From: an uncultured delta proteobacterium
GTDB lineage: Bacteria; Desulfobacterota; Binatia; Binatales; Binataceae
DNA length: 64,000 bases
Assembly (NCBI GenBank): GCA_963842085.1
Contig: CAWJET010000001.1
Span: forward strand, 1,216,001-1,280,000
Reading direction: 5' to 3'
In this document: piece by piece, positions 9,801 to 31,498 of the stretch
Position numbering within the stretch: position 1 is the first letter of the stretch
Layout: each line of letters starts with the position of its first letter
Made by a program: the position numbers and the translations under genes
The notes under the pieces: model-generated
What the model saw: only the letters and a program-made list of their open reading frames with translations
Told to the model about the DNA's origin: nothing
Database searches by the model: none

Positions 9801-9833
9801 AGTGCGAAATCTCGGCGGATTCTATTCTGGGAC

Positions 9834-12223: not shown

Positions 12224-12276
12224 TGCATCCTCCCCCGCTCGTCTCGACTTTTATAGGATTCCACTGCTCCGCCACA

Positions 12277-12294
12277 ATTGGACTTTGGTCCGAT
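12277..12294. promoter_or_regulatory. TGGAC-N4-GTCCA-type palindromic operator
   Basis: ATTGGACTTTGGTCCGAT, about 54 bp upstream of the 12223 start. Confidence 0.75.
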
Positions 12295-12323
12295 CCCTCC
12301 CTCAAAAGAGAATTGGTTCCTCC

Positions 12324-13229
12324 TCATAGCTCCACTTGCGGCAAAAGCAGACTTACTCCAAATCTCAGGGTGAATTGCTCAGTCTGAGGGTCAAACTGCC
12401 GATAGACCATGCATTCGCTGGAGACCGATGTATCGATTGCGTAGCCTTCGCCGAATTTCCAGACTTTCCCAAATCCCGCGCTCAGCGGCATCTCGGTTGA
12501 AGTCTTGTGACGGTAGTTGATTTTCCAAGTCGCGTCGCTCGATTTCAGATACCATCCATGACCTAGCTGATAGGACAGGATTGGTTGTATCTGAAGCGAG
12601 CTGACCGGAACCGAATGCGACGATGAGTAGGCGAACGACGTCGCCTGCTGAAAGAGACCAGCAATTTGCAGGCTCGCAATGCCCCGGTAACCGAAGGCCC
12701 AGGCTGGCCCCATCTGCCAAGCCCCTTTGCCGGTGAACTGACTCGTGGAGGTGGGAAACACGAAATATGGTCCGATTCCCCATCGGAAGCGCGTTTCGTT
12801 CACGTTCGGCCAAGGCATCACAAACAGGTCGAGAAGTTGGAAGTCATCGAGCGCAGTGGTGGTTGACGCGCCTTTGTTGCGAGCAACGGTGACGATTTGA
12901 ATACTCGGCCGGATGAGTTGCTCGAGCGGCGTGAACAATTGTGGGCGTACTGCGAAGAGTGGCCGGAACTGCAGTGTGTTCGGCTGCGCATTCGTACCGA
13001 ACTCCGCCGGCGTGTAAATGTCCTGGATCTTGAACTGAGTCAGACTCGCAGTCGGATCGTTTACCTTCTCGGCCAGGGATTCATCGGCGCTACTCGCAGT
13101 GGTGGTTTGCTGGGCGAGACTGATCGAACACGCCCCCAGTAGGACGAGAAGCGCGGCGCCGGTAACAATAATTCGCCACCGGTGCCGCGTGGTGTGATAA
13201 CAAACGACGCCACGCGTGAGATCTATCAC
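12324..13229 (-). CDS. Paralog of 11258-12223 (beta-barrel-like protein)
   Basis: LAEKVNDPTAS, LQFRP, WGIGPYFVFPTS..FTGKGAWQMGP, LQIQPILSYQL. Confidence 0.75.
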   Translation of the reverse strand: MIDLTRGVVCYHTTRHRWRIIVTGAALLVLLGACSISLAQQTTTASSADESLAEKVNDPTASLTQFKIQDIYTPAEFGTNAQPNTLQFRPLFAVRPQLFTPLEQLIRPSIQIVTVARNKGASTTTALDDFQLLDLFVMPWPNVNETRFRWGIGPYFVFPTSTSQFTGKGAWQMGPAWAFGYRGIASLQIAGLFQQATSFAYSSSHSVPVSSLQIQPILSYQLGHGWYLKSSDATWKINYRHKTSTEMPLSAGFGKVWKFGEGYAIDTSVSSECMVYRQFDPQTEQFTLRFGVSLLLPQVEL

Positions 13230-13233
13230 GGTC

Positions 13234-13962
13234 CTATTGTCCTGCTGGCGTTCGTCCCTGCAGCTCGAGCAGACGAATCGTAATCCTGTGAACCCAGTAG
13301 TCCATAGCGGCCTTAGCGTCGCCCCACTGCCACTGCACCGCCTGGCTCATCGCCATCCCGCCGGCGCGCTGGTCGATCGCGCCCGCCAAGAACTGATTGG
13401 TCGATCCATCAGTCACCTTCATTTCGGCTTCGGCGGAACCCACGAATGCGTAACTGCCGGTCGCCAGCGACTGGATTGCATTGAGGGCTCGGGCCTGCGG
13501 AATTATCACCGACACCGTCCGTAGCGCCGGGGTCGCGGCGGTCGCGTTGACGATCGCGACTCGCAGCACAAGCACGCCCGGCCCCGGCTGGTCAACCAGC
13601 GTGAAATCCTTGGACAAACCTTCCTTGAGTTGGTTGTAGAAGTAGGCCCCTAGCATCTGTTGATCAGACGCCGACACTGTCGTACTGGCGTCGTCCCAGA
13701 ACTCGACCGGCTCCAGAAGAATCTTATTGTACTGGCTCCACTGTGCATTCGGGTTGACATACACCATTGCGGCCTGGTTCCCGGTGCCGGGTTGCAGCAA
13801 CGATGCATCCTGCCCGAAGAATCCGCTTATCACAGGAGCAGGCTGACCGCCCTCGACCTGCTGCATGACGCCCGGCTTGCTCTCCACCGTTTGCGCGCAT
13901 CCAGACATGAGCAGCCCGCAGAATAGAGCGGCAAGTACAGGCACTACAACTGAGACTTTCAT
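13234..13962 (-). CDS. DUF3313 family lipoprotein
   Basis: Start reassigned to 13962 (GGAGG RBS); MSGC lipobox; YNKILLEPV, PGPGVLVLRVAI, AEMKVTDGST. Confidence 0.75.
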   Translation of the reverse strand: MKVSVVVPVLAALFCGLLMSGCAQTVESKPGVMQQVEGGQPAPVISGFFGQDASLLQPGTGNQAAMVYVNPNAQWSQYNKILLEPVEFWDDASTTVSASDQQMLGAYFYNQLKEGLSKDFTLVDQPGPGVLVLRVAIVNATAATPALRTVSVIIPQARALNAIQSLATGSYAFVGSAEAEMKVTDGSTNQFLAGAIDQRAGGMAMSQAVQWQWGDAKAAMDYWVHRITIRLLELQGRTPAGQ

Positions 13963-14078
13963 AGAATGCGACCTCCCGCGATTATCTCGTTTCAGCGACA
14001 AGTCACTTGACTGGCTGCAACTCCGCCGGTCGCAACTCCGCCGACGACCAGTCTGGCGCGTCCAGTACTCGTAAGTAA

Positions 14079-14096
14079 ATTGGACCTTGGTCCAAT
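14079..14096. promoter_or_regulatory. Palindromic operator (perfect arms)
   Basis: ATTGGACC-TT-GGTCCAAT upstream of DUF3313. Confidence 0.8.
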
Positions 14097-14282
14097 ACAA
14101 ACTTTCGCTTATATTTCTCTTTTGTTCTTCACCATCCGCGAACTGATAGCGAAGAATTATTGGCTGGAATGCGGTGTTGATCTCCTACTTCCTTTTTTAC
14201 TGAGAAAGAAGTGCGATAGGCAGATGCGGCACCGGCCCTAAGTGCGTATATGAACGCAGACAAGTTGTGGACGAGCAAATCG

Positions 14283-14939
14283 CTACTCTGACAACTTGGC
14301 TTTTGCCCTTGAGAAGTCGTCGCCGACCGGACGAACACCAAGACGCTCCGCCATTGCCACGAGACTGGCAAGCGAATCCGCCCGCATCTTTTCCATCACT
14401 CGCGCTCGATGAACCTTGATCGTCTTCTCGCCGGTTCCTAGCTCGTGACCGATCTGCTTATTGAGCAAACCACCGGTCACGAGAGCTAACACTTGCCGCT
14501 CGCGGGGAGTGAGAAGCTCGTATCGACGACGAAGTTCTTCAAGTTCAGCGTACGAGATTCTCTGTTTGCGGCTGCGTTCGGCGGAACGTCGAATCGCCGC
14601 GATCAGGTCTTTGTCATCGACTGGCTTCTCCAGGAAGTCCACTGCGCCAGACTGAATTGCCTTGACGGTCATCGGGATGTCACCGTGACCTGTTATGAAT
14701 ACAACTGACAGATACGGCAGAGTCTTCGCCAACGTCTCCTGAAGTTCGAAGCCGTCTACGTCAGGCATTCGCACATCGCTGACAGCACAATCGAACTGAT
14801 CGCGCTTGCTGTTTCCGAGAAACTCGCGTGCCGATGAAAAAGAAACTACTTGGATGCCGGCCGACTTGATCAGTCGTGCTAATGAGGTGCGCGCTGATTC
14901 GTCATCATCTATTAGTGCGACTTTGATCGAAGCAGGCAT
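14283..14939 (-). CDS. FixJ/NodW/TodT-type response regulator (REC + LuxR HTH)
   Basis: IDDD, SDVRMP, FITGHGDIPMTVKA, FLEKP, LTPRERQV, LLNKQIG, TIKVHRARVMEKM. Confidence 0.93.
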   Translation of the reverse strand: MPASIKVALIDDDESARTSLARLIKSAGIQVVSFSSAREFLGNSKRDQFDCAVSDVRMPDVDGFELQETLAKTLPYLSVVFITGHGDIPMTVKAIQSGAVDFLEKPVDDKDLIAAIRRSAERSRKQRISYAELEELRRRYELLTPRERQVLALVTGGLLNKQIGHELGTGEKTIKVHRARVMEKMRADSLASLVAMAERLGVRPVGDDFSRAKAKLSE

Positions 14940-14954
14940 CGTACCCGACTCGAA

Positions 14955-16289
14955 TCAGGCGTGACTTCCGATACTCGGTCCAGTCGGTAACGTGAACTCA
15001 AGCGTTGCGCCACGGTCCGTATTCTGCGTCGCCCAGACCCGGCCACCGTGGTTCTCGACGATTGAACGAACGATGGCGAGCCCCATTCCCATTCCGGTCG
15101 ACTTGGTCGTGAAGAAGGGGTCGAACAGACGAGTCATAACTTTGGGGTCAATGCCCTTGCCCGAATCCCGGACCGAGATATGCATATGGCCAGGTTCGTT
15201 GAGACCGGCACAAATGACGACGTCGCGCGCCCCCCCGGCCTCGCACACAGAATCGAATGCGTTGAGGACCAAATTCAAAACGGCTTGCGTCAATTCGGTC
15301 TTGTTCCCCAGCACCGTTGGCAGCGAGTCGGGCACTTCGATCGACAAAGAGATGTCTTTCATTCTCGCGTCGGCGCTCACGATGCGATTGACGTCCAGCA
15401 GGAGCTCTCTGACATCGACGGGAGATGTTTTCGCTTCACCTCGTCGAAAAGTCGCGCGAACATTTCGGACGATTTCGACCGCTCTGGCATCGTCGCGGAT
15501 GATATCGTCCAGCGCGCTATCGACTTCGGTCAGATCTGGAGTTTTGGAAGCGAGGAGTCGCCGCGCGGCCCTCGCATTGTTCAGGATTGCGCCGAGCGGT
15601 TGATTCAACTCGTGCGCCAGCGAGGCGGTCAGCTCTCCCATCGTCACAACTTGTGAAACCTGACGCAATTCCTCCTCCAGGAGGCGATGTTCCGCGAAGG
15701 CGAGCTTTCGCTCGAGGGCGTTTCCAACGATCTCGGCGACCAGTTTCAGACGCTGGACCTCTTTCTGAGTCCACGCTCTTTCCGCCCAACTGGTGAACGA
15801 CATAGAGCCGACGACCGCTCCGCTGATCTTCAATGGGATGCTCACGTGAGCCTTGATACCATGAAGACGCGCTGTGGCCACGTCGTCGGAGGCTTCAGGT
15901 GGAAGTTCTTCAACGTGCGAGAATATGACAATTTCACCAGCGAGGACCTTGGCGGCGAGCCAAGGAAACGACTGAGTGCTGTTAACCCTCGTCCCCAAGA
16001 ACGGTGTCGTACTTCCGTTTCGCGCCGCCTGATGCGTGATGTACAAAGCACCGTCGACCGGGTCCAGTTGCGTCACTATGCCCCGATCGACCTGCATCGA
16101 AAGCACGATCGCTTGAAGCCATCGCTCTATTTCGCCATCGATCTCCTCGACCGATACGCGGATGAAGGTGGAGGATAAATCCCCCAGCAGCTTCTCGAAA
16201 TCTACGACTTCCGGGTTCGGAGCGGCGTATGCGGGTGAATCGGTCTCTGTCGTACAGACTTCTTCTGCTCTCTCGAAGCGATTAACCAT
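14955..16289 (-). CDS. Cytoplasmic GAF-domain sensor histidine kinase
   Basis: GAF-like N-terminus without TM helices; H-box [32 protein letters not shown]. Confidence 0.92.
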
Positions 16290-16377
16290 AGGGTTCAGCG
16301 CCGCCTCGATGCGCGGTCTACCGAGCGGGCATCCTTCGTGTTGGCTTCACTGGCTCTTATACGCCAGATCCACTTCT

Positions 16378-16851
16378 TCAGGAAAGAGCGAGAGCACGGG
16401 CAATTGCCCCGAGCAGCGGCTCCTCGTCGAATGGCTTGAACAGGACTGCCACCGCGTCCGACTGCGCGGCCAGCGAGCGAATCCGGGCGTCGGTTCGTCC
16501 GGTTATTAGTATGGTGGGCAGGCCGTGTCCTGAACCTTTCAGAACCTCACACATCTCGATTCCGTTCATTTCAGGCATGTCGATGTCGACGACCATGCAG
16601 GCGTTAGATCTCGGTGTCTCGCTTGCGAGTAATTCAGACGGACCATTGAACGTCTGGACTAGAAAACCAGAAGCAGAAATCAGCCTCTTCAACGAGCGAA
16701 GGACGGAAGGATCATCATCCACCACCAGCACGGTTGCCGCGATCGTTGTGTCGGTCACTTCTGTCTCTGGAGCGATTGGCTCGGCACGTTTGCGCGCTCG
16801 CTCAGGGGGGACCGCGGCCCCCTTCCTGGCCATACTTGTTGCAATTTTCAT
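16378..16851 (-). CDS. Single-domain response regulator
   Basis: VVDDD, VDIDMP, ILITG, LFKPF; no output domain. Confidence 0.85.
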   Translation of the reverse strand: MKIATSMARKGAAVPPERARKRAEPIAPETEVTDTTIAATVLVVDDDPSVLRSLKRLISASGFLVQTFNGPSELLASETPRSNACMVVDIDMPEMNGIEMCEVLKGSGHGLPTILITGRTDARIRSLAAQSDAVAVLFKPFDEEPLLGAIARALALS

Positions 16852-16947
16852 TTCAGATTCATCTGCGGCCTTCTCTTGATACGCGGAGCGGTAATCTTGG
16901 ACGCTGGCTCCCGCCTCTATTCTGTTACGAACGTGTGAATCAGAGCA

Positions 16948-16965
16948 ATTGGACCAAAGTCCAAT
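16948..16965. promoter_or_regulatory. Palindromic operator upstream of the two-component operon
   Basis: ATTGGACCAAAGTCCAAT. Confidence 0.8.
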
Positions 16966-17051
16966 ATGGCCGATTCTCCACGAAGTCTCGTGTCAGGGCT
17001 GGGACCTCGCGACTTCGGCAATCGAGGTAACAGGAAAGTGCGCCTCCAACT

Positions 17052-17840
17052 CTATTGCGACGGTACTCCGCCTGCCGATGAGTGAACTTCACCGCCATCC
17101 GCAATGGCGTGGACGGCGGCCGCTCGGGGGAGACTGACGGCCGCCGTCTCGCCAGTGGCAACCTTGCTTGAGTTGCCCAAGATCTCCAGATTCTTACGCG
17201 CGGGCTCATAGTCCGGCACGTCGCGTACGAGATCACGCCATACGAGCGACGCGCTGGCAGTCTTTCCCTCCTGAGCGTAGATAACACCTAGCAGGTTGCT
17301 TGCGTCCGGTTGCTCAGCATTCAAGCGCAGCGCGGCCAGTGTCTCGTGCTCTGCATCGGTCAGCATTCCACGCTGTGCCTCGACGAGGGCAAGATTGAAA
17401 TGTGATTCGGAGTGTTCGCCACCGAGAAAAACCGCGTGTCGCAAACTATCCGTCGCGACGTCCAGGTCGCCATTTTCGAGCTGAGCCAGCCCTAGGTTCA
17501 GGAATAAATCCCAATTCATCAGTCCAAGCGCAGCCGCGCGCTGATACTCACTGACTTCCGCGGTCCTGTCGCCGACCATTCCCAGGGCAAAACCCAGATG
17601 GTAATGAGCGAGCGCGTTGTCCGGATGCTTGCGCACGATTTCCACGTGACGACGAATCGCCTCTGAGTAGTCTTCGATGCCAAGGGAGTAATCAGCGCCG
17701 ACATCGCAGACTTGCTGCTCAGCTCCACCCGCGAATACGAAGTTCGGGATCCACACTGAGAGCAGCAGCATCGTTGCCGTAATTGTTACCAGCGCGATAG
17801 TTCGCACCTTCCGCTCCTCGGCTGACTTGCCACTCGACAT
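17052..17840 (-). CDS. TPR-repeat protein, probably exported
   Basis: PDNALAHYHLGFAL, LFLNLGLAQ, SHFNLALV, ASNLLGVIY, PDYEPARKNL. Confidence 0.82.
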   Translation of the reverse strand: MSSGKSAEERKVRTIALVTITATMLLLSVWIPNFVFAGGAEQQVCDVGADYSLGIEDYSEAIRRHVEIVRKHPDNALAHYHLGFALGMVGDRTAEVSEYQRAAALGLMNWDLFLNLGLAQLENGDLDVATDSLRHAVFLGGEHSESHFNLALVEAQRGMLTDAEHETLAALRLNAEQPDASNLLGVIYAQEGKTASASLVWRDLVRDVPDYEPARKNLEILGNSSKVATGETAAVSLPRAAAVHAIADGGEVHSSAGGVPSQ

Positions 17841-17864
17841 TGCGCCTAATCGAGGGTGTCGTCT

Positions 17865-17912
17865 ATTGGACGTTGGTCTAATGTACTTAAGTCCATTGGA
17901 CTAAGGTCCAAT
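17865..17912. promoter_or_regulatory. Three overlapping operators at 15-bp period in a divergent intergenic region
   Basis: ATTGGACGTTGGTCTAAT (17865), AATGTACTTAAGTCCATT (17880), ATTGGACTAAGGTCCAAT (17895). Confidence 0.8.
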
Positions 17913-18038
17913 TGCGTGAGTTAAGCTCGTGGCGCAAACTCGGCGCATAAAACGCTCCTGCAATCGAGAGCGCTGGGCTGACTGACTCTTCCCGCAACCG
18001 GGTGTTCAAGCGCAAGCAGGGAGGAGGGAGTACAACAA

Positions 18039-18479
18039 ATGAAAAACAGGCTGCAACTTCTGGCGATCGCCGCCGCAATCACTGTTGCAGGATGCTCTGA
18101 GTCCGCGATCAAGCCTCAAGCGCGCTGCGAACTTATGACCGCGCAGATGTGTTCGCGCGCCGCGGAGTCGCAATTGCGCGATGGCACTCTTGCCGTCAGC
18201 TACATATTTCAGCCAGAGGATGCGCGGGTAGTTCCATTTGTTGTACCTGTATTTGAGAAAAACGGTACCTTGGCTGCGGAAGTAGATTGCTACGCCAGCA
18301 CCGATACTCATACTTATTCGATAGTCCGATCAAACCTCGCGATTCCGCCAGCATCTCAGGAATCGGTCGACTTTCTTAGAAATCAACACTTATGCTCCGA
18401 CAGCGGATCGTACGCCGACGATAGAGACCCACTTGTCGAGACGGCATCAACTCTGCCACTAGCCTCACAACGAAAATAA
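18039..18479 (+). CDS. Hypothetical lipoprotein
   Basis: GGAGGAGG RBS; VAGC lipobox. Confidence 0.7.
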   Translation: MKNRLQLLAIAAAITVAGCSESAIKPQARCELMTAQMCSRAAESQLRDGTLAVSYIFQPEDARVVPFVVPVFEKNGTLAAEVDCYASTDTHTYSIVRSNLAIPPASQESVDFLRNQHLCSDSGSYADDRDPLVETASTLPLASQRK

Positions 18480-18534
18480 TGGTTCTCGGGCCAACCACAT
18501 GTTTCAGCACCATACCAGTACACAGGAGAACGCG

Positions 18535-18882
18535 ATGCCGATTCGATACGCCTTGATCGGGCTCATCGCTCTACTCACGGTTTCGGGGTGCGCTCCCAGT
18601 CAGCAACAAATGCTTAATAACTCCCAGGCGATGGCCGTCCAAACGGCCGTCAACCGCGGACAGTTCGACCTGCAATGCCGTTCCGCAACGGGAACAGCCA
18701 TTTCCCGTGGAGTCGTCCAACCTGCATTGCAAGGTCCTTGGGTGAACGGGATCCAACCTGCCGAATTCACCGTAGGCGTCGAGGGTTGCCGTAGGCGCAA
18801 GAGCTATATCGTCGTGTGCCCTGAGGGTGGCGGCGGGTGCTTTGCGGCTGGTCCCGGACCGTTTTATCCAGACTGGCAATAG
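18535..18882 (+). CDS. Cys-containing hypothetical lipoprotein
   Basis: AGGAG RBS before ATG 18535; VSGC lipobox; RGQFDLQC, GVEGC, YIVVCP. Confidence 0.75.
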   Translation: MPIRYALIGLIALLTVSGCAPSQQQMLNNSQAMAVQTAVNRGQFDLQCRSATGTAISRGVVQPALQGPWVNGIQPAEFTVGVEGCRRRKSYIVVCPEGGGGCFAAGPGPFYPDWQ

Positions 18883-18961
18883 CAGCGGAAGGCTACTGCT
18901 GAGCGTTGACGGAGCACCTCAGGGCATTGAAATCCGGCGAAAAATGGGAGAAGGGACCTAA

Positions 18962-19723
18962 ATGAGAACGCTCAGGATTGTAACTCTCGGCCTCGTGCTG
19001 CTTGCCTCGGGATCGGCTCGCGCCCAGGGCGTCGTACTGCCGCTGCCGCCCCAGGACCAGCAAAGGATAACCGCACAGCTCGGACCGGGTGTCGTGGGCA
19101 TCGCATTACCCAGCCAGCCAATCAGCGATCCCAGCGTCTTCTTTCCACTTCAAGCCAAAGCGCTGACCTACCAGGTCATGGCCGGCCCAAATGCCGGCAA
19201 CACTCAGTCTCTGGGACTCTTCAAGACACGGCGTCCAAGCGGGGCGTCTGCATGGCGGTTTCAATTATCGCCGTCGCTCGCTGGGTTCCTTCGTCAGAGC
19301 GCGGAGGGCGATATCATAATGCCTGCCGTGAGCGATGCCGGCGAGGGTGTGGTTGTGGTCACTACGCCTCCTAATCCATTCGTGCCCAAGGGCATGCAGC
19401 CGGGCGAGACGCGGACCTACTCGCAGCGAGTCTCGGTAAATTACCTGGACGATCCATCGGACCAGAAATATTCCGGCTCGGTCACCGGAACTTATACTTA
19501 TGTCGGCACCTATCAAGTCACTGTGCCCGCGGGTACGTTCCCGGCGGTGCTGTTTCGCGTTCATTGTGATGGCAAGGTCGGGCCTGCTCACACGGTTAAC
19601 ACTGGCTACAACTTTTTTGCGCCGGGCGTCGGCATGGTCGCCATGATCTTGCAAGAAGACGTGACGGCTTTCTGGATCTTCAACATCGATAGCACCACCG
19701 GCAAGGTGCTGATGTCGAATTGA
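18962..19723 (+). CDS. Hypothetical exported protein
   Basis: Signal peptide ending ARA; VTVPAGTF and FAPGVGMV motifs. Confidence 0.75.
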   Translation: MRTLRIVTLGLVLLASGSARAQGVVLPLPPQDQQRITAQLGPGVVGIALPSQPISDPSVFFPLQAKALTYQVMAGPNAGNTQSLGLFKTRRPSGASAWRFQLSPSLAGFLRQSAEGDIIMPAVSDAGEGVVVVTTPPNPFVPKGMQPGETRTYSQRVSVNYLDDPSDQKYSGSVTGTYTYVGTYQVTVPAGTFPAVLFRVHCDGKVGPAHTVNTGYNFFAPGVGMVAMILQEDVTAFWIFNIDSTTGKVLMSN

Positions 19724-20050
19724 AATGAGGGCGAACAGTCTGCACAAGAACAAAACTGCATCGAAAATCTGTTCAGCCGAGATGCGAGATGGCGCGGCGG
19801 GTGCGGATTTGGCAGGGGAGGCGAAATGATCATGAGATGGACCGCGGCTGGAGTTCTGGAAAGCCGAGCTCAACTTCCGCAAGGTCGCCGGCTTTGGCGC
19901 GCTCGAGAGGCTCGACACCGCCCTGCGCGCTCATGATGCCGCGATCAATCCAGGAGTTGATAATCGAAGGCAGGCCAACTAAATTATCCAGCCGCTACTC
20001 AATTCCAACAGCGAATGGGACATCGCCCACGATTGAGGGCGCTACGTATT

Positions 20051-20317
20051 ATGCTTGGGTTCAACCTGGACATTTGGGACTATGCGACGTTTGTCGCCAT
20101 TTTCATCCAGGCCGCCGCTGCCGTTGTAGTGCTCGTTTTGCTTGCGGGATTGCCCGGTCGGATCGCGATCGGGGGGCATCATCCTGAAGCAGAAGCAGGT
20201 AAAATCATGGGCTGGGCAGGGTTTCTAGCCGCAGTTCAGTGGATCCAGGCCTTCATCTGGGCGTTCAAACCGACCGAAGGGTGGACATTCGACGCTTTCC
20301 TTCCGAAGAGCGAATAG
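20051..20317 (+). pseudogene. DUF3302-family membrane protein, probably frameshifted at the C-terminus
   Basis: LPGRIAIGGHHPEAEA..MGWAG...WIQAFIWAFKPT; lies next to the IS3 end. Confidence 0.6.
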
Positions 20318-23422: not shown

Positions 23423-23491
23423 TGTCCGTCTCCTTTCTGTCGACGGACTCTACCTCAATTCTGCTGGGCGTTAGGCGGGCAGGCCAGCGGT

Positions 23492-23854
23492 CTATGTACC
23501 CAAGTTTTTCATCTTGTTGGCTTTTATCGGTACCCGAGTCAGAAGTGTCGTTAGAATCAGGTGCAGGACGACCGCCGGCCACAGTAGTATGCCGTTCAAA
23601 CCGCCCGCGAAGCCGACGTAGGCGAGATACAGCGTGACGGCCGCGCTGTAGGTCAACATGCCGGCCAGCGGCGGCCCCGGCCAGCACGCAATACTTAACG
23701 CGATCAGCGCGATACCGGCCACGCGGGCGGCCGGTACCGCAACGCCGGTAAGTTCCTCGCCGAACAACAACTTCCCAACGAGCGACGGAACAATCAGCAA
23801 CGCCACGCCAGTCGCCGCTTCGCCCATGGCGGCAAGAGTAAGCCACCTACTCAT
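23492..23854 (-). CDS. Small multi-TM membrane protein
   Basis: EAATGVALLIVP, LWPAVVLH; directly downstream of the sulfatase. Confidence 0.75.
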   Translation of the reverse strand: MSRWLTLAAMGEAATGVALLIVPSLVGKLLFGEELTGVAVPAARVAGIALIALSIACWPGPPLAGMLTYSAAVTLYLAYVGFAGGLNGILLWPAVVLHLILTTLLTRVPIKANKMKNLGT

Positions 23855-23867
23855 CGGCCGGTGCTAG

Positions 23868-26369
23868 CTAGTCCTTCGCGCGGGCCACCGCGTCCTCAAT
23901 GGCCGGCATGTTCTTGCGATCCTGATCCGTGTACTGCGCCGGGCCCAGGTTGAAGGTCAGCTTGTCGATCTTGCCCGTGAACTTGAACGGACAATCATAA
24001 CGATACTCGACGAGCGCAACCCCGGTTAGTGTATCCAACCCGACGTCGAAGTCTTCGTCTTCGGGGAACGTGATGGGAGTGGTGTGATCCATGTGCTTCT
24101 TATCCACTTCCTTGCCGTCCACCGATAGCACTCCCGTGCCGCCCTTGCCGAGGCCGGGGCCGTCGAGCTTGAAGTCGAACACGATCGTGTGCTCGCCGGC
24201 GCTCAGTTCCGGCCCTTCCCAAATCGTGCGCTTGAGATCGAGCAGATTGTAAAGGAACACGACCTTCCCGTGGCGGACTCCCATCTCACCCTTGGAGAGG
24301 AATAAGCCGTAGCCGCCGAAGCGACCGCCCTCGGTCACGATCATGCCTTCGGCGCCGCCCTCGGGGATGTCGACATTGGCGGTGATGGTGTAGTCCTTGT
24401 CCAGGATGTTCGGGGCGCTGCTCGGCGGCACGCCGCTCAGTTCGCCTGAATAGGTGAATGTGGTCCGTCCGGCTGTGGCGCTCGGGCGCTGCGTCAGGAA
24501 GCGAGCGAGGGTCGAGTTGTCGAGCGGGAGCACATCGTATTTCTTAGCCTGCTCATAGAAAACATCCTGCAGTTGCTTGAGCTTGTCCGGCATCTTGTCG
24601 GCCAGGTCGTTGTACTCGGTGACATCTACATTGAGGTTGTAGAGTTCCCACTTGTAACCGGTAATCACATCCGGCGGCGTGGCGGTGCTCAGCTCCCACG
24701 GAAGACTTACCGGCGTCGTCACCGCTATCCATCCGTCCTGGTAGATCGCGCGGTTCCCGAGCATCTCGAAATATTGCGTCGTGTGGCGGGTTGGTGCGTC
24801 GGCGTTCTTCTTGTCCCACGTGTACACCATGCTCACGCCTTCAATCGGGCGCTGCTTGATGCCGTCGATTGTGTCGGGAGCCGGGATGCCGGTCACCTCG
24901 AGGATCGTGGGCACGATGTCGATGACGTGAGAAAACTGGCGGCGGATGCCACCGACGTCCGTGATGTGGCCGGGCCATGACATGGCCATGCCATTGGCCG
25001 TCCCGCCGCGATGCGACGCGATCTGCTTCACCCACTTGAACGGGGTATCCATCGCCCACGCCCAGCCGGCCGCATAGAGGGGAAAGGTCCGATCCGATCC
25101 CCAGAAGTCGTACCAGAGAAACTGGTCCTTGACCGGCACGGCGACGCCGTTGAAGGTTGTGAACTCGTTTGGCGTACCGTTGAGCATACCCTCGGCGCTC
25201 GCGCCGTTGTCGCCGCTTATATAGATGATCAAGGTGTTGTCGAGCTCGCCGAGGTCGTCGACGGCCTGGATGACGCGGCCGATTTCGTGGTCGGTGTATG
25301 CGAGGAACGCCGCATAGACGTCGGCCTGCTTGATGTACAGTTTTTTCTGCTCGAGGCTCAGGGTATCCCACGCCGGAAGATCCTTCGGCCACGGCGTCAA
25401 CTTGGCATCGGCGGGCATGATGCCAAGCCGTTTCTGGTTGGCAAAGATGGTATCGCGCAATTTGTTCCAGCCACCGTCGAACAGGTTCTGATCGCTGATC
25501 TTTTTAATCCACTCGGGCGTCGGATGATGGGGCGCGTGAGTACCGCCCGGAACGTAGTAGACGAAGAACGGCTTGCCGGGAGCGATCTCCTTGAGCTGCC
25601 TCATGTACTGGATGGCGTCGTCAGCCATCGCGGTGGTGAGATTCCAACCAGGGTGCCCCTGGAAGGGGTAGATGGCCGTCGTGTTGCGGAACAGGTTCGG
25701 TTGCCACTGGCTGGTGTCGCCGCCGATGAAGCCGTAGAAATACTCGAAGCCCATCCCGATGGGCCATTGGTCGAATGGCCCGGCCTGGCTCGCCTGGTAA
25801 AAGGGCGTGTTGTGGTCCTTGCCGAACCACGCGGTCGCGTATCCGTTTTCCTTGAGGATCTCGCCGATGGTGCCGGTATCCTTCCTTATAATCGAATCGT
25901 ACCCCGGGAATCCGGTTGCCGCCTCGCCAACAACCCCAAAGCCGGCCACGTGATGATTTCGTCCCGTGATCAAGGCGGCGCGGGTGGGTGAGCATAACGA
26001 CGTAGTATGGAACTGCGTGTACCGCAGCCCGCTGTTCGCAATGCGATCCAACGCCGGAGTCTCGATGACGCCGCCAAAGGTGCTAGGCGCGCCGAAGCCT
26101 ACGTCGTCGGTCATGATGAGCAGCACGTTCGGCGCACCCTTGGGCGGCACAATGCGCGGCGGCCACCAAGGCGTTGACTCCGAGGCTCTTCCCTTGATCA
26201 CCCCGCCGAATTTCGGATCGGGCGGCGGAAGTTGATTTCCGGGGATGGTCGTGGTGGCGTTAGGTGAACCCAACTCACCTGTGACTTCCTGCGCGAGGCA
26301 AGAGGATGAAGGAAGCGTAAAGGCTGCGATGCAAAGCGCTACGGCGACAACATGTCTGAGTGCAATCAT
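23868..26369 (-). CDS. Arylsulfatase (Cys-type, FGly-dependent) with C-terminal extension
   Basis: PNVLLIMTDDVG, LCSPTRAALITGRNHH, FGKDH, THAPHH, SGDNG; signal peptide from MIALRH (start 26369 preferred). Confidence 0.92.
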   Translation of the reverse strand: MIALRHVVAVALCIAAFTLPSSSCLAQEVTGELGSPNATTTIPGNQLPPPDPKFGGVIKGRASESTPWWPPRIVPPKGAPNVLLIMTDDVGFGAPSTFGGVIETPALDRIANSGLRYTQFHTTSLCSPTRAALITGRNHHVAGFGVVGEAATGFPGYDSIIRKDTGTIGEILKENGYATAWFGKDHNTPFYQASQAGPFDQWPIGMGFEYFYGFIGGDTSQWQPNLFRNTTAIYPFQGHPGWNLTTAMADDAIQYMRQLKEIAPGKPFFVYYVPGGTHAPHHPTPEWIKKISDQNLFDGGWNKLRDTIFANQKRLGIMPADAKLTPWPKDLPAWDTLSLEQKKLYIKQADVYAAFLAYTDHEIGRVIQAVDDLGELDNTLIIYISGDNGASAEGMLNGTPNEFTTFNGVAVPVKDQFLWYDFWGSDRTFPLYAAGWAWAMDTPFKWVKQIASHRGGTANGMAMSWPGHITDVGGIRRQFSHVIDIVPTILEVTGIPAPDTIDGIKQRPIEGVSMVYTWDKKNADAPTRHTTQYFEMLGNRAIYQDGWIAVTTPVSLPWELSTATPPDVITGYKWELYNLNVDVTEYNDLADKMPDKLKQLQDVFYEQAKKYDVLPLDNSTLARFLTQRPSATAGRTTFTYSGELSGVPPSSAPNILDKDYTITANVDIPEGGAEGMIVTEGGRFGGYGLFLSKGEMGVRHGKVVFLYNLLDLKRTIWEGPELSAGEHTIVFDFKLDGPGLGKGGTGVLSVDGKEVDKKHMDHTTPITFPEDEDFDVGLDTLTGVALVEYRYDCPFKFTGKIDKLTFNLGPAQYTDQDRKNMPAIEDAVARAKD

Positions 26370-26415
26370 GCGGGGGTTTTTCCTTCTAGACTTGGCAACA
26401 AGCTTCTCGTTGGGC

Positions 26416-27315
26416 TTACTCCCGACACTCGTTGAGGGGCGGGACCTTTCCGTTGAGCTGGACGGCCAGAGCGGCAGCCGTGCCGACAGGGGCGCCGACA
26501 TAGATCGTCGAACCCGTTTTGTTAGTCGCGATGGCACCTTTGCAATATTTGAAGAAGGACTTGTCGCATGGGTAAGGCCCGAGGATCTGGTAGCTTTGGG
26601 CGTTGTCTCCAGTGGACTGGGTGATTGGGCAGGAACAGATGATCTGTCCTTTCGGCACCGGTTTGTCGAAGCCCGGGAACGTCGTCTCCTCGGTGCTTCT
26701 GAAGCATAGTCCGCCGTCGCACTGAGCGTAGGCGCCGCCCTCCTCGCCCTGGCAGGTGTAGACCGCGCCGCCTCCCTGAGGAGAGGCGATCGACTCAGGC
26801 AGGCTGTAGGTGCTGACCATGTATTTGTTGGCGGCGCCCGCGGCGTTGATCGAACAGACGTCTTCGTCCTTGCCCATCGGAAACGGCAGGCTGATGCTGT
26901 CGCCGTGCTTCACGTCGCACTGGCAGTAAGCGACGCCGTCGAACACATTGCAGCGCGCCGCGGCGCAAAGCGCGTAAGTCTGATCCTTGCAGATCTTGAA
27001 TTGCGCGCCGGCCATCGCGTCGAGGAGTTTATCGAGGCAACCTTTGGAAAGCTGGCCCATCTTGTTCTGTACACAGCTCTTGATGCGTCCGACATCGGGC
27101 AGCACGTCCGAGCAGAGACTCCAGACGTCGCCGCCGCATGCTCGGACGATGCCCAAATCCTTGCTGAAGCCCTCCTGCGCCATCGAGGGGGCGGCCACGC
27201 CCACTATCAACATGAGCGCAACGGTCAACCCTGCGCCCGTCAGCCGCGTCCTCGCGGAACAAAGTCCTGACCACGTAGCCCCTTCCGCTTTCGATTTTTG
27301 GTCTCGATGCAGCAT
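26416..27315 (-). CDS. Secreted cysteine-rich protein
   Basis: Signal peptide ending SMA; 18 Cys in the mature part; N-terminal CxxDxxxxC...C...LSxxC module. Confidence 0.75.
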   Translation of the reverse strand: MLHRDQKSKAEGATWSGLCSARTRLTGAGLTVALMLIVGVAAPSMAQEGFSKDLGIVRACGGDVWSLCSDVLPDVGRIKSCVQNKMGQLSKGCLDKLLDAMAGAQFKICKDQTYALCAAARCNVFDGVAYCQCDVKHGDSISLPFPMGKDEDVCSINAAGAANKYMVSTYSLPESIASPQGGGAVYTCQGEEGGAYAQCDGGLCFRSTEETTFPGFDKPVPKGQIICSCPITQSTGDNAQSYQILGPYPCDKSFFKYCKGAIATNKTGSTIYVGAPVGTAAALAVQLNGKVPPLNECRE

Positions 27316-27367
27316 TGAATTCCCTTCCGTCCTTTTGGATACCTTTTAGACCCTTCGCTGTTATTTC

Positions 27368-27934
27368 CTAGGGAGTCTGGTCCTGGATCTCAATGTTGAT
27401 GCGGCGATTCTGAGCCCGCCCTTCCGGGGTGTCATTTGACGCGATCGGACGATATTGTCCGAATGCCACCGCTGAAAGCTGATTTGGATCGAGCCCCTGA
27501 GCCACGAGGTAGCGAACCACGGAGATCGCACGGGCGGCGGAGAGGTTCCAGTTCGTTGGGAAACGCTCGGAGAGCGGCGGCAGGATCGGCAAGTTGTCCG
27601 TGTAGCCCTGGATGACAATCTGTTTGCCGGAAACCCCCTGCAACGCCGGTACGATCTTATTCAACTCCTGCTGTCCCTGCTGGTGTAGTTCCCATCCACC
27701 CTCGGGGAACAAAATGGCGTTAACCATCGTCACCTCCAATCGGTTCTGCAACTGTCTGACCTTTACCTGATCGGAATTAACTTCAGAGTTGAGGCTCTGG
27801 TTGAGTTGCTGATAGGTCGAATTCAGATATTGGAGTTGCTGAGCCTGTTGGACCTCCTGATTGTACTGTTGTTGGGGAACGCATCCTGTTATCAGCAATG
27901 AAGCGAGCAATGGAGCTAGTAGCTTGAGTTTCAT
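27368..27934 (-). CDS. OmpA/MotB-family peptidoglycan-binding lipoprotein
   Basis: ITGC lipobox; GYTDN, NWNLSAARAISV, AFGQYRP, GRAQNRRI. Confidence 0.88.
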   Translation of the reverse strand: MKLKLLAPLLASLLITGCVPQQQYNQEVQQAQQLQYLNSTYQQLNQSLNSEVNSDQVKVRQLQNRLEVTMVNAILFPEGGWELHQQGQQELNKIVPALQGVSGKQIVIQGYTDNLPILPPLSERFPTNWNLSAARAISVVRYLVAQGLDPNQLSAVAFGQYRPIASNDTPEGRAQNRRINIEIQDQTP

Positions 27935-27952
27935 CTGATCCTCAATCCGTCG

Positions 27953-28903
27953 TTACGGCTGCGAGACCATGTAAACGACCTGGCTGCCGCTGTAGAAGGG
28001 TTTGTAGTAAACCCCGTTTGCCATGTAGTAAGTGCTTCCGTTGATCGTGGTCTCGAAAGCGCCAGGTGGGAGAGAGTAAACAGTCGACCCCATCGCTGGA
28101 GGCCCGTACGGGGCGGGCTGGTATCCATAGGGTGGGTAGTTCTCGACCACAGTTGTCGTAGGTGCTTTTGCTTGCGCATTCGCGGTTAGCATCGACCCGA
28201 CCGCCATACCTCCGACCGCCCCCAGAGCGGCCGCACCGAGTGCCTCGCCGGTGCTCGAGCCGCCATCGCTGCAGCAGTCGTTATACGGGCCGTAGTAGCC
28301 TCCGCCTCCTCCGTTGTAATTGGTATCGCCTACGTTGTTGTTGACTGTGTTCATCGTCGAATTGTGCATCGACTTTTCGGTCTGTTCGTTGTTCGCTTGC
28401 AGCGAATTGGCTTCGTTGTACTTGGACTGCTGCTGGGCCGTCTGATTGGTATTGTACGTATTGTAAGCGTTGCCATTGCCCTTCTGGTATTCGCTGGACG
28501 CTTGCGAGCTGCTGTTGGGATGGAACTCGTTTGACGATGACCCAGAACTGCTACTCGGGTGCTGCCACGAGCTGGAACCACCAGATGAATGACCCATTGA
28601 CGAGCTACCGCTATGTCCGAAGCTACCGCCGCCGAAGCCATCACCACCGAAGCCTTTGAAGCCTCCGCCGCCTCCACCGCCGTGGAACCCCCCGCCTCCT
28701 CCACCTCCGCCACCGCCAAAGCCGTGGAACCCTCCTCCGCCTCCTCCACCAAAGTGACCGCCGCCTCCTCCACCAAAGCGACCACCGCCGCCGCCAAACC
28801 TTGCAGATGCTTGTGGCGCGGCGGCCAGGGAGATCGCAACCGCCATCATCGTTGCAACTGTGAATGCGCGAGCCGTTCGCATGCCGCATATCGTGGTAAT
28901 CAT
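27953..28903 (-). CDS. Gly/Ser-rich exported protein with C-terminal beta domain
   Basis: Signal peptide, GGGG(F/H) repeats, TM-like AALGAVGGMAVG, SLPPGA..INGSTYYMANGVYYKP. Confidence 0.75.
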   Translation of the reverse strand: MITTICGMRTARAFTVATMMAVAISLAAAPQASARFGGGGGRFGGGGGGHFGGGGGGGFHGFGGGGGGGGGGFHGGGGGGGFKGFGGDGFGGGSFGHSGSSSMGHSSGGSSSWQHPSSSSGSSSNEFHPNSSSQASSEYQKGNGNAYNTYNTNQTAQQQSKYNEANSLQANNEQTEKSMHNSTMNTVNNNVGDTNYNGGGGGYYGPYNDCCSDGGSSTGEALGAAALGAVGGMAVGSMLTANAQAKAPTTTVVENYPPYGYQPAPYGPPAMGSTVYSLPPGAFETTINGSTYYMANGVYYKPFYSGSQVVYMVSQP

Positions 28904-29688
28904 GGCTTCGACTCCTTACCCGTCAGAAACTCAATGCGCTTGAAGTCCTTGGGCACATCTGCCCGAAAACGGCTCGCCGATATTTTTTTTGGAAATTTCC
29001 AATCTGAAAGGAGTGCAATGTACTCAGGCGATCCCGGCAAGCTCCTGTAGTTAATCACGACCTTGCGAGGGATTGGCTTTCCCGAGCGATCGAGCCAGAG
29101 TTGAAAATCGGCTTTTGGCGATGAAAGAGCGATGTGATCACATTCTATTCCATTGACGTCTCCTATTCCGACGTATCCGCCATAGGTGGTTTCCTTGCGA
29201 AGCAACTTGCATGTATCGCTCGCGGCGAGGTCGGACAGAGGAATCGTGAGGTTGTTCATCTCCGCTACCCGATCCAGCATTCCATCGATGACTGAAGGCA
29301 CCGCAAGGGTCGTATAGACCATGCGCGAGGGGTCGAGGATGGTTAAAGTGCCGTCGCTGTACCAAAGCTCCTTGGCGCCCAGGTCGCTCTGGTAATCGAC
29401 GGCGAGCTCGTCCGGCCGTTGAACGGCGAAGTCCATGGCGCCTGCGAACTGAACCTTCACGTTGGGAGGCAGAACCTGATCGAACATGATTTCGGCGTGG
29501 AAGCTGAACGCGTCAGCCGAACTCAGCGCCTGGCATGCCTTGGTCAACAGCTTGTCCGCGTATGGTGCAATGCCACTCGGCCGGGCGCTGGATGTCGACG
29601 TCGGTTCGGCGGCGAATGTCACACAATAAGCGCCGAGCATCGCGGCAATCAAAAACCCGAGGTTGACGATAAATACTTTGCTACGCAT
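28900..29688 (-). CDS. DUF2092 family periplasmic protein
   Basis: VQRPDEL, WYSDG, IPLSDL, GIECDHIA, DFQLWL..GKPIPRKVVI. Confidence 0.85.
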   Translation of the reverse strand: MRSKVFIVNLGFLIAAMLGAYCVTFAAEPTSTSSARPSGIAPYADKLLTKACQALSSADAFSFHAEIMFDQVLPPNVKVQFAGAMDFAVQRPDELAVDYQSDLGAKELWYSDGTLTILDPSRMVYTTLAVPSVIDGMLDRVAEMNNLTIPLSDLAASDTCKLLRKETTYGGYVGIGDVNGIECDHIALSSPKADFQLWLDRSGKPIPRKVVINYRSLPGSPEYIALLSDWKFPKKISASRFRADVPKDFKRIEFLTGKESKP

Positions 29689-29766
29689 GTTCGCCTCTTA
29701 CCTGGATCTGATTTCTGTTTCCTATGCTATCTGGAACAACTGTCGCAAATTACACAACCAAGAGAT

Positions 29767-29784
29767 ATTGGACTTTGGTCCAAC
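29767..29784. promoter_or_regulatory. Palindromic operator upstream of the DUF2092-to-sulfatase gene run
   Basis: ATTGGACTTTGGTCCAAC. Confidence 0.8.
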
Positions 29785-29975
29785 ACCTTATAGCTCTCAT
29801 AGGTCGCTGCGGAGGGGCAACGGCCGCCGTTCGGGCCAAAGCAGCCTCGCGTTGGCTGCCTAAAGACGATAGGTGGGCATGCAAGCACAGCGGCGGAAGC
29901 AGCCGTGGCAACGAACAGGAGAGCGGATATCTCCATCGTCTTTCTCGATAAGTGCGTTTCCCATTCAAAGCATTT

Positions 29976-30698
29976 TTAAGACGACCACCCCTGTCGATTG
30001 TAGTAGTTGACTACCTGCTGAACGATCTGATCGGTGGTCTTATCCACGAGATAACCGGTTGAAGAGGTAATGTTCTTGACGCCTCCGGCAGCGAGATTCA
30101 CCCCCAGCGACGCGGCCGCGGTGGCGCCGCCCGCAGCTGCTCCGGCTGGTCCGGTGATTCCTGCACCGGGCATGTATCCGCTGTTAGCGTTCGTAGCGAA
30201 GTCAATTATCTCGGTCGAGCCTTGATCGGTCTTTTGAATAACCTGAACTACTGTGTCGACTTTCGATGCGCCCGCGCCAAGGCCGATCACCATTCGACGT
30301 AGCCGGTTTCCTTGGCTGATGTCCGTGAACTGGCCATCCAATATGAGAACATTGTTGCCGGTCGGAGGCACACCCCGCTGCAGGCAGGTAGTATTGATAC
30401 CCTTTCCCGTCAGGTTCGCCGCGACCTGGACGCAGATATTATGTGCCGTCTGGCGGGCGATCTCTTGCTCTTGGGCAGTCTGGTTGTCATCCGTCATGTT
30501 TCGGTAGGCTACCTGGAAGATGCTGGAGTTGAGTGAGACATCCGAAACACTTACGGCGAATGGATAAACGACCACTGCGGAGGGTGGTGTGGCCGAGATC
30601 GGCGCTGCAGAACTCTCTTGTGTCACATGCGCACCCGCGCATCCGAACGTCGCCAAGGCTAACAGCACATATGTTCGACTAAGAATTTGAAACCTCAT
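29976..30698 (-). CDS. DUF4410 family lipoprotein
   Basis: TFGC lipobox; GQFTDISQGNRLRRMVIGLGAGASKV, SGYMPG. Confidence 0.8.
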   Translation of the reverse strand: MRFQILSRTYVLLALATFGCAGAHVTQESSAAPISATPPSAVVVYPFAVSVSDVSLNSSIFQVAYRNMTDDNQTAQEQEIARQTAHNICVQVAANLTGKGINTTCLQRGVPPTGNNVLILDGQFTDISQGNRLRRMVIGLGAGASKVDTVVQVIQKTDQGSTEIIDFATNANSGYMPGAGITGPAGAAAGGATAAASLGVNLAAGGVKNITSSTGYLVDKTTDQIVQQVVNYYNRQGWSS

Positions 30699-30779
30699 GG
30701 TATTCCTCTTTTAAGCTGGAGTTGATTCCTTCTAGTCGTTTTCTTGTCCGAGTTTTGCATATTGAACTGGCTCTCCACA

Positions 30780-30813
30780 ATTGGACTTTGGTCCAATTGG
30801 TCCCTGGTCCTAC
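30780..30813. promoter_or_regulatory. Palindromic operator plus a degenerate adjacent copy
   Basis: ATTGGACTTTGGTCCAAT (30780) then ATTGGTCCCTGGTCCTAC (30796). Confidence 0.8.
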
Positions 30814-31008
30814 TGGTGCCACGCTCACTTAGTCTGCTGCAGTGCCGGCGGCTTCTACGACCTGTCGAGCGCGGTCTTTTGAGGTCAATAGAAACGCATC
30901 ACCATTGAAATTCTCTTCTGAGCCATCGCCTTCATTCCACTAAAATGGAGACAGCTTGGGCCTGAATGTCAGGACCATCGCGTCAACTCAGGGCCAGTCG
31001 CGCCTCTG

Positions 31009-31332
31009 CTAATTGGCAAAGCCGCTCTGGACGAAGACGCTACCTTTCGGTCCGATTCGGACGCATTCGGCCTGGCCGTTATAGTCGGGACTGCAAATGG
31101 GCTTGTCGACGGACGGACACTTGTACAAACCCGTGTCGATCTGCTGGCACGTGTTGATATTGAAATGTAACTCGGTCTTCGCCAGTGAGGCTTGCTGAGC
31201 CGCCGATGGTTCAGACGACGAGCACCCGCCAAGCGCGAGCAGCCCAACAACCGCGATCGTTGAAATCGCACGCTTGGTAATTCTTCGACCGTTCGAGACT
31301 TGATTCCAATTTAGCACAATAGCACCTCCCAT
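31009..31332 (-). CDS. Small Cys-containing lipoprotein (start uncertain)
   Basis: LGGC lipobox; four further Cys. Confidence 0.6.
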   Translation of the reverse strand: MGGAIVLNWNQVSNGRRITKRAISTIAVVGLLALGGCSSSEPSAAQQASLAKTELHFNINTCQQIDTGLYKCPSVDKPICSPDYNGQAECVRIGPKGSVFVQSGFAN

Positions 31333-31465
31333 CAGTTGATCTGTGTATCAGGACTGCGCGGCAGACTTTTCCTTCAGTTGTAGAATACGATTCCATATTT
31401 CCTGTGCCGGTAATCCATATCCTCTTCACTGTCCGAGTTTTTGGCAGATTGAACCGCGCAAAACA

Positions 31466-31498
31466 ATTGGACTTTGGTCCATTGGACCTTGGTCCTAT
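31466..31498. promoter_or_regulatory. Tandem operators at 15-bp period
   Basis: ATTGGACTTTGGTCCATT (31466) and ATTGGACCTTGGTCCTAT (31481). Confidence 0.8.

Follow-up and report, generated by a model that had tools for sequence, protein, structure and literature searches.

In a 64,000-nucleotide (nt) stretch of contig C1 of an uncultured Binataceae bacterium (GCA_963842085.1, CAWJET010000001.1, positions 1,216,001 to 1,280,000; hereafter the window), an 18-bp palindrome, ATTGGAC-N4-GTCCAAT, precedes a series of envelope-protein operons together with a two-component signalling module. Judging from sequence comparisons, the palindrome is very probably the docking site of the response regulator encoded in that module (14283-14939). 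In its fuller form, ATTGGAC-Y-WW-R-GTCCAAT, it is likely to be the operator through which an uncharacterised FixJ-class subfamily, characterised by the recognition helix E-K-T-[IV]-K-V-H-R, activates envelope operons. The assignment to the FixJ-type regulator, first proposed in an earlier note on this DNA, is supported by four lines of evidence: a site ahead of the regulator's own operon, the co-occurrence of site and regulator, the tracking of the site with the recognition helix, and the consensus and helix of EL222. The mechanism we propose is conventional (autoregulation and class-II activation by a GerE-family protein); as a pair, regulator and operator are undescribed, and they recur in many phyla.

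With up to two mismatches allowed, the window holds nine copies of the palindrome against 0.15 expected, a number reached in none of 100 shuffles. All nine have no more than one mismatch, and they start at 12277, 14079, 16948, 17865, 17895, 29767, 30780, 31466, and 31481. The copies at 17880 and 30796, with 3 mismatches each, complete the eleven that the earlier note had listed, and its view that no good copy lies in real genes or in the rest of the window also stands: when 3 mismatches are allowed, the whole 64 kb yields just two further matches (5863 and 25759), which are intragenic, carry 3 mismatches each, and are at chance level (1.94 expected). A weight matrix returned 10 window sites of at least 16 bits, compared with a mean of 0.01 per shuffle (100 shuffles), a count that is partly circular because the matrix was derived from these same sites. 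The strong sites are all intergenic once over-long starts of open reading frames (ORFs) are corrected, since those flagged as intragenic by crude gene calling lie in over-extended starts or spurious short ORFs; with this correction, each copy stands upstream of a transcription unit, as had been claimed. The dyad is composed of two half-sites, in which positions 5 to 7 and 12 to 14 are invariant across 21 seed sites. The spacer is constrained as well (C/T at position 8, A/T at positions 9 and 10, and G/A at position 11), which yields the form ATTGGAC-Y-WW-R-GTCCAAT. Tandem sites keep an exact 15-bp spacing (17865/17880/17895, 31466/31481, and the paralogous arrays).

The genome is represented by two contigs, C1 (3.24 Mb) and C2 (1.69 Mb), with 61% G+C. 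A genome-wide scan at up to one mismatch found 20 copies, which are not spread through unrelated DNA and fall in just four places, all of which include a copy of the REC-kinase-regulator module: C1:1213186 and C1:1213216 (left of the window), the nine window sites, eight sites at C1:3031519-3042539, and one at C2:845561. Strong and weak copies together number about 27; they are confined to the four regulator-module loci and are all upstream of genes. The second cluster on C1 is paralogous to that of the window (proteins 75 to 96% identical), and the C2 locus holds a third copy of the module at 55 to 66% identity. In each locus the REC-only gene that begins the module has a site immediately upstream, and this holds for 4/4 module copies, including a fourth at C2:877974, which points to the autoregulation that had been postulated. 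Also facing the C2:845561 site is an operon for a COG4313-like protein, DUF4410, MlaE, MlaF, MlaD, a PqiC-like lipoprotein, and a glycine-zipper protein; the genes that face the array left of the window encode a lipoprotein, a GluR-type ligand-gated channel, a COG4313-like protein, and, at 4-1380 of the window, the TolC-family protein. The candidate regulon, originally described for a cluster of about 27 kb, extends beyond 12277-31498 and beyond the window.

The sites have a fixed relation to candidate promoters. Each site was oriented to its downstream gene, and the position of the best -10-like hexamer was recorded on both sides. On the gene side, this hexamer starts 22 to 24 nt past the site in 15/20 sites of this genome and 21/28 sites from other phyla, compared with 4/20 and 7/28 on the opposite side, where it is otherwise scattered. 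The mean hexamer scores on the gene side and the opposite side are 2.8 versus 1.9 bits in this genome and 3.4 versus 0.3 bits in the other phyla. Among the exceptions are the site at 29767 and its paralogue at C1:3029163, with the best hexamer, TAATTT, at +15. If the hexamer is taken as -12 to -7, the site would extend from about -52 to -35, with its centre near -43.5, and in 8 of 20 cases its final T begins a TTG at the -35 position. This predicted layout is the class-II activator geometry of the LuxR/GerE family.

Apart from transposases, the REC+GerE regulator (14283-14939) is the only DNA-binding protein encoded in the cluster according to Pfam. Its recognition helix reads E171-K-T-I-K-V-H-R178, and its closest solved relatives are StyR (1yio, E 1e-47) and FixJ (5xso), with DevR far behind (E 3e-16). 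The best NCBIfam model is FixJ (NF006900), at 205.8 bits against a curated cut-off of 255, and we rejected an assignment as FixJ proper on this score; none of the three module proteins (regulator, kinase, and REC-only) has an equivalog in NCBIfam. We fetched 79 loci around kinase homologues from public genomes, mostly with distant kinases (up to 44% identity) and none from the genus of the window. Sites of at least 16 bits are present in 28 of them, from many phyla and groups, including Methylomirabilota, Burkholderiales, Verrucomicrobiota, Gemmatimonadota, Acidobacteriota, and metagenome-assembled genomes of Bacillota. The usual gene order in the site-bearing loci is kinase, regulator, site, and REC-only gene; 18 of these loci include a REC-only ORF, and in 13 of the 18 a site is directly upstream of it. 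Sixty loci have an adjacent FixJ-class regulator, half of them with the helix E-K-[TN]-[IV]-K and half without it. A motif site is found near the regulator in 25/30 loci of the former kind and in 1/30 of the latter; the single site-bearing locus without the signature has an E-R-T-V-K-A helix and a TGAAC/TGTAC site. None of 10 loci whose regulators have a FixJ-type helix (R-T-V/I-E) carries the motif.

A second half-site form accompanies a second form of the helix. The regulator of the fourth module (C2:877974) is 50% identical and has the helix E-R-T-V-K-A-H-R-A-S, and around this module (region C2:865001-884000), as well as at C2:28795, sites of the form ATTGTAC-N4-GTACAAT are found. Downstream of these TGTAC sites are the REC-kinase operon of the module itself, an operon with DUF2092, the gene of an ion channel, and a sulfatase/DUF3313 pair in divergent orientation; a Crp-like regulator is also among the targets. 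In the genus, all 12 genomes with a regulator match (E 1e-40 or better) have 2 to 7 sites matching TGKACYWWRGTMCA, and all 12 without a match have 0 or 1 (reversed-pattern control, 0 to 2); these counts are descriptive and not a statistical test, the genomes being kin. In five fetched relatives, TGTAC sites flank an E-R-T-V-K-A regulator and precede REC-only, DUF2092, sulfatase, and Pqi genes, the families of the window. The TGGAC form is rare in the genus (1 or 2 copies in 3 of 24 genomes), which excludes it as a genus-wide operator and leaves TGTAC as the common form. Thus, Lys versus Arg (with Val versus Ala) in the helix tracks G versus T at half-site position 5. In the relative G004, a G-E-K-T-I-K-V-Q-R regulator is accompanied by hybrid TGGAC/TGTAC sites. 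Hybrid-arm sites lie at 17880-17897 in the window and at C15:241114, C12:92498, and C8:236596 in G004, and they may be points of cross-talk or mixed-dimer sites of both regulator types.

Some further observations concern these regulators and their surroundings. Three regulators from Lysobacterales/Steroidobacteraceae have an E-K-T-[IV]-K helix that continues as H-R-[SG]-R, and only weaker dyads, of the form GGCC-YWWR-GGCC; these dyads may represent a third specificity variant. Adjoining the fourth regulator gene is a gene (10266-12707 of C2:865001-884000) for an 813-residue protein with multihaem cytochrome c motifs and TPR repeats. In another relative from the genus, G012, a 65%-identical regulator paralogue (C1:1770497-1771141) is broken by two TGA codons and is probably a pseudogene.

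EL222, a LOV-helix-turn-helix (HTH) protein of Erythrobacter litoralis, shares the GerE-type HTH of the regulator, and alignment of their helices (S-E-K-T-V-K-M-H-R in EL222, G-E-K-T-I-K-V-H-R here) gives the same signature, E-K-T-[IV]-K-x-H-R; we know of no natural envelope regulon for EL222. Its 12-bp DNA consensus, RGNCYWWRGNCY, as given in PMC10521638, fits the core GGACYWWRGTCC of the palindrome, that is, the core in 20/27 of the strong and weak sites of this genome, and none of 4 TGTAC sister sites. According to PMC5001607, an Escherichia coli promoter is activated by EL222 once the lux box over the -35 region is exchanged for the 18-bp EL222 site, and EL222 can be made to repress if the site sits inside a core promoter. 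The two systems differ in input, a LOV domain in EL222 and a phosphorylated receiver here, and in the site, which is here a longer palindrome of 18 bp, near-perfect and with ATT/AAT flanks that are conserved. The earlier note did not recognise the motif as a described operator. No paper describing it as such was found, and literature string searches for the motif and its compact notations returned unrelated eukaryotic or primer texts and no relevant paper, and among the papers searched the EL222 consensus string turned up in a single one; but the core is not unknown, because it extends the EL222 consensus.

Other relatives share single aspects of the system. StyS/StyR and TodS/TodT control aromatic catabolism in Pseudomonas, and StyR, the closest solved full-length relative, has the same REC+GerE architecture. 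Unlike the regulator here, StyR has the helix A-E-V-T-V-K-V-H-R-H, other half-sites, a hybrid double-sensor kinase, and catabolic targets. The StyR box is palindromic with an ACC-WW-GGT centre; a literature string search for the StyR and TodT boxes found no paper. The system resembles FixL/FixJ in the kinase transmitter, which is closest to that of FixL, and in the best NCBIfam model of the regulator; the sensor differs, with GAF here versus haem-PAS, and so does the FixJ helix (S-P-R-T-V-E-V-H-R). Class-II positions are likewise occupied by NarL at its 7-2-7 sites. With NarL and with LuxR/TraR at the lux box (for the lux box, PMC5001607), the regulator shares the predicted character of a dimeric GerE-family activator whose dyad is centred at about -42 to -44 over the -35 region. 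The input of LuxR is a ligand, the sequences differ, and the sites here are 18-bp dyads with 15-bp tandem arrays. DevR was mentioned above as a distant match. This protein (DosR/DevR of Mycobacterium tuberculosis) belongs to the NarL branch, is paired with HisKA_3-type, GAF-containing kinases, and has a helix that also starts with E-K-T-V-K. The DosR box, TTSGGGACTWWAGTCCCSAA, has the same GGAC-N4-GTCC spacing and a WW centre (the string is present in PMC2275270). In contrast, the kinase here has HisKA of the PF00512 type and a FixL-like transmitter, the HTH of DosR matches the regulator weakly (1zlj, E 5e-05), and the DosR regulon serves actinobacterial dormancy, not the envelope. A DosR/DevR dormancy regulon was rejected on the type of kinase and on the nearness of the regulator to StyR/FixJ.

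No hydrophobic segment is present in the kinase (14955-16289), in which an N-terminal GAF domain is followed by HisKA (PF00512) and HATPase; its transmitter is closest to FixL (PDB 4gcz chimera, E 1e-46; NCBIfam agrees). Homologues from other phyla mostly match the transmitter only (query residues about 193 to 435), and the sensory input therefore varies. The acidic pocket, the phospho-acceptor Asp, and the Thr and Lys are retained in the regulator as well as in the REC-only protein. The REC-only gene is the most constant target, and by analogy its product is probably a phosphate sink or a kinase inhibitor. The analogue we have in mind is the FixT receiver of Caulobacter. In the proposed mechanism, the soluble kinase would sense a cytoplasmic signal through its GAF domain and phosphorylate the regulator, the near-identical paralogues RR2 and RR3 probably being served likewise. 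The phosphorylated dimer would bind a dyad that ends where the -35 element would begin and, as a class-II activator, recruit RNA polymerase with sigma-70; divergent or stronger promoters would be served by arrays in which two or three sites follow one another at 15-bp spacing. The circuit would thereby induce itself and, as feedback, the REC-only protein. Its predicted output in the window comprises at least eight transcription units with about 25 genes, nearly all for exported envelope proteins, which may move hydrophobic molecules or lipids and remodel the envelope.

Signal peptides or lipoboxes are found on nearly all target products, among which are two COG4313-like channels, a FadL-type channel, a TolC-family protein, PqiB/PqiC-like MCE proteins, LolA-like DUF2092, an OmpA-like lipoprotein, small lipoproteins, DUF3300, DUF2950, DUF3313, DUF4410, and an 833-residue exported sulfatase. 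A literature search on DUF2950/DUF3300 and DUF2092/DUF3313/DUF4410 found nothing on their regulation. The products fit the earlier summary of an uptake/envelope system; that the DUF genes are co-induced as one system, as it also held, is something we infer. In other phyla, the genes behind the sites encode sulfatases (3 loci), patatin-like phospholipases (2), fatty-acid desaturases (2), DUF2092, a bestrophin-like channel, and an OprB porin, and a BLAST search of the regulon proteins of the window against the 79 loci revealed few shared targets. The cassette is thus conserved across phyla and the content of the regulon mostly is not; the theme common to the targets is the envelope, lipids, and hydrophobic substrates.

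Several points weigh against activation of these operons by the neighbouring regulator. In this genome the -10-like hexamers match weakly (CAnAnT), and 5/20 sites have their best hexamer elsewhere. Five of the 30 regulators with the helix signature have no site of at least 16 bits in the fetched DNA; one of these loci is cut 231 bp past the regulator, three (Lysobacterales/Steroidobacteraceae) have weaker GGCC-type dyads, and one is from Vicinamibacterales. No site was found in four sampled genomes from outside the genus with regulator relatives of 40 to 51% identity, the helices of which were not examined. The counts overstate the statistical weight because related genomes are not independent. 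A search for RNA runs that cover the locus found none listed. Finally, three paralogous regulators, RR1 (window), RR2 (C1:3033458), and RR3 (C2:842945), share the helix, and the local protein therefore need not be the sole binder of any given site. It is, however, unlikely that the window sites are served mainly by RR2, RR3, or mixed dimers, with the local regulator redundant or minor. The helices of RR1 and RR2 are identical and that of RR3 differs only in H to Q, the sites of the three loci are indistinguishable in sequence, and hybrid TGGAC/TGTAC sites exist at 17880 and in G004, all of which would favour such service; yet every module is accompanied by an autoregulatory site and neighbouring targets of its own, which suggests parallel inputs onto a shared operator and not replacement.

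Binding by the regulator could also lead to repression, the dyad abutting the -35 region blocking RNA polymerase until a signal releases the protein. We consider this quite improbable. The site does overlap the -35 hexamer position, but it is located ahead of the -35 and -10 positions and not between them; the promoters have no good -35 and a weak -10, as in activator-dependent promoters, and the phase to the -10 hexamer is fixed across phyla. The precedent of EL222 cuts both ways, with repression from a site inside the core promoter and activation from a site in the same position as here (PMC5001607). If another transcription factor, for instance of the CRP/FNR type, bound the dyad, the link to the response regulator would be mere neighbourhood. 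A Crp-like regulator gene adjoins the TGTAC-type site at C2:868623, and Pfam finds no such gene in the window cluster. The arrangement TGGAC-N4-GTCCA has the 5-4-5 layout of FNR boxes, but its centre is near -43.5 as against -41.5, typical of FNR. The kinase-regulator-REC triad is the gene set conserved beside the motif across phyla, the presence of the motif follows the helix signature, and the EL222 consensus fits the sites; together these make an unrelated binder very unlikely. The least credible explanation is that the palindromes are non-regulatory repeats, be they elements like repetitive extragenic palindromes (REP) or miniature inverted-repeat transposable elements (MITE), recombination sites, or remnants of a mobile island. 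The cluster is indeed duplicated, holds insertion sequence (IS) elements, and is flanked by genes like those of phages or integrative and conjugative elements (ICE). But conservation across phyla is limited to the 18-bp dyad and its -10 phase and does not include flanks or target genes, the sites always precede genes and never lie between convergent ends, and a REP/MITE-type intergenic repeat was rejected in the absence of dispersed, regulator-independent copies, the 27 or so copies being restricted to the module loci.

Returning to activation by the FixJ-class regulator, the sites and their units are arranged along the window as follows. Pfam confirmed the gene labels of the earlier note for DUF2950, DUF3300, the PqiC-like and PqiB-like proteins, FadL, DUF3313, and the REC+GerE regulator, and likewise for the GAF-HisKA-HATPase kinase and the REC-only, TPR, sulfatase, OmpA-like, DUF2092, and DUF4410 proteins. 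The site at 12277-12294 (1 mismatch, 26.7 bits; TATAAA starting at +22 on the gene side) heads a minus-strand unit at 4918-12223, assigned by Pfam, NCBIfam, barrel fold, and signal peptides or lipoboxes. This unit comprises the barrel protein (11258-12223), FadL (9834-11114), the PqiB-like protein with three MlaD domains by Pfam (8211-9800), the PqiC-like protein (7573-8214), DUF3300 (5957-7573), and DUF2950 (4918-5922), and its short gaps and shared strand suggest a single operon. The barrel label agrees with the predicted fold of 11258-12223, an outer-membrane beta-barrel (mean predicted local distance difference test [pLDDT] score of 75) whose best PDB match is 4rl8, a COG4313 hydrophobic-compound channel (E 3e-07). 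A perfect site at 14079-14096 (32.8 bits; CAGACT starting at +24) heads the second unit, on the minus strand at 12324-13962, with the DUF3313 lipoprotein (13234-13962) and a second COG4313-like protein, a 301-residue member of the barrel family (12324-13229). For the latter, an Atlas search gave only a weak Phenol_MetA_deg lead, and the barrel question was settled by the fold of its paralogue. The start of DUF3313 was moved from 14100 to 13962, as suggested by the signal peptide and the extent of the Pfam match.

The putative autoregulatory site is perfect (16948-16965, 32.3 bits; CAGAAT at +24) and heads the signalling module on the minus strand (14283-16851), with the REC-only gene (16378-16851), the kinase, and the regulator. 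An array of three overlapping sites with 15-bp spacing (17865-17912) lies between two divergent promoters; it consists of 17865, 17880 (the weak TGTAC/TGGAC hybrid), and 17895, and each outer site has a -10-like hexamer 23 nt off on its own gene side. The array recurs at C1:3037044-3037091 and C1:1213186-1213233, and in the triple arrays each outer site is promoter-proximal to one of two divergent genes. To its left is a minus-strand gene for a TPR protein (Pfam) with a signal peptide (17052-17807), whose start we moved from 17840 to the GTG at 17807, the probable start; to its right, plus-strand genes at 18039-19723 encode two lipoproteins (18039-18479 and 18499-18882) and an exported DUF3108-like protein (18962-19723), identified by lipoboxes and a signal peptide and with paralogues in the second cluster. 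The site at 29767-29784 (1 mismatch, 28.5 bits), where GACAGT at +23 is a weaker match than TAATTT at +15, heads the DUF2092-to-sulfatase operon. This minus-strand unit (23868-29688; Pfam, NCBIfam, and export signals) comprises DUF2092 (28900-29688), a Gly-rich protein (27953-28903), the OmpA-like lipoprotein (27368-27934), a 299-residue exported protein (26416-27315), and the sulfatase (23868-26369, corrected from 26537). A perfect site (30780-30797, 32.3 bits) and its degenerate neighbour (30796-30813, 9.5 bits) head DUF4410 (29976-30698, minus strand), and the two sites at 31466-31498, 15 bp apart (29.1 and 27.8 bits), head a small lipoprotein (31009-31332, minus strand). At the left end of the window, the plus-strand gene at 4-1380 for the TolC-family outer-membrane protein lies behind the array C1:1213186-1213233 and is probably the last gene of a further unit begun by it. 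Behind the same triple array, C1:1213187-1215787 encodes a prokaryotic glutamate-receptor-type ligand-gated ion channel (Lig_chan and SBP_bac_3) in an apparent unit with the TolC-family gene.

An IS110-family transposase (20896-22380) and integrase-core (rve) fragments (22416-23422), identified by Pfam, are inserted in the cluster (20896-23422) outside the regulon, and this insertion separates the lipoprotein unit from the sulfatase unit. Two ORFs beside it (19789-20187 and 20239-20652) have neither export signal nor family and may not be genes. The region C1:3024001-3044000 is a rearranged second copy of the whole cluster (window 12000-31500), in which the FadL gene is split into two overlapping ORFs (5349-6047 and 5978-6673 of that region). 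Both copies are flanked by the same phage-/ICE-like genes (SprT/IrrE-like, 75 to 97% identical; window side 32761-35899), which suggests that an island was duplicated or acquired twice.

More tentatively, it is possible that the kinase-regulator-operator-REC triad is an undescribed signalling cassette that governs envelope-lipid remodelling and outer-membrane traffic across phyla, with sulfatases, LolA-like DUF2092, MCE/Pqi proteins, FadL, COG4313 channels, patatin lipases, and fatty-acid desaturases as recurring targets. The change of Lys to Arg (with Val to Ala) might then retune TGGAC to TGTAC and insulate sister regulons of the same gene families, and hybrid sites might wire deliberate cross-talk or heterodimer control. 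The finding would provide a regulatory context for DUF2092, DUF3313, DUF4410, DUF3300, DUF2950, and the COG4313-like barrels, all of them widespread among soil bacteria and of no known role. It would also link a subfamily of response regulators to the DNA specificity that has been measured for EL222, an optogenetic tool, and the pairing of helix and operator, being readable from sequence, could serve regulon prediction in uncultured phyla. The natural TGGAC/TGTAC pair in one genome would be a simple, testable case of DNA-level insulation between duplicated two-component systems.

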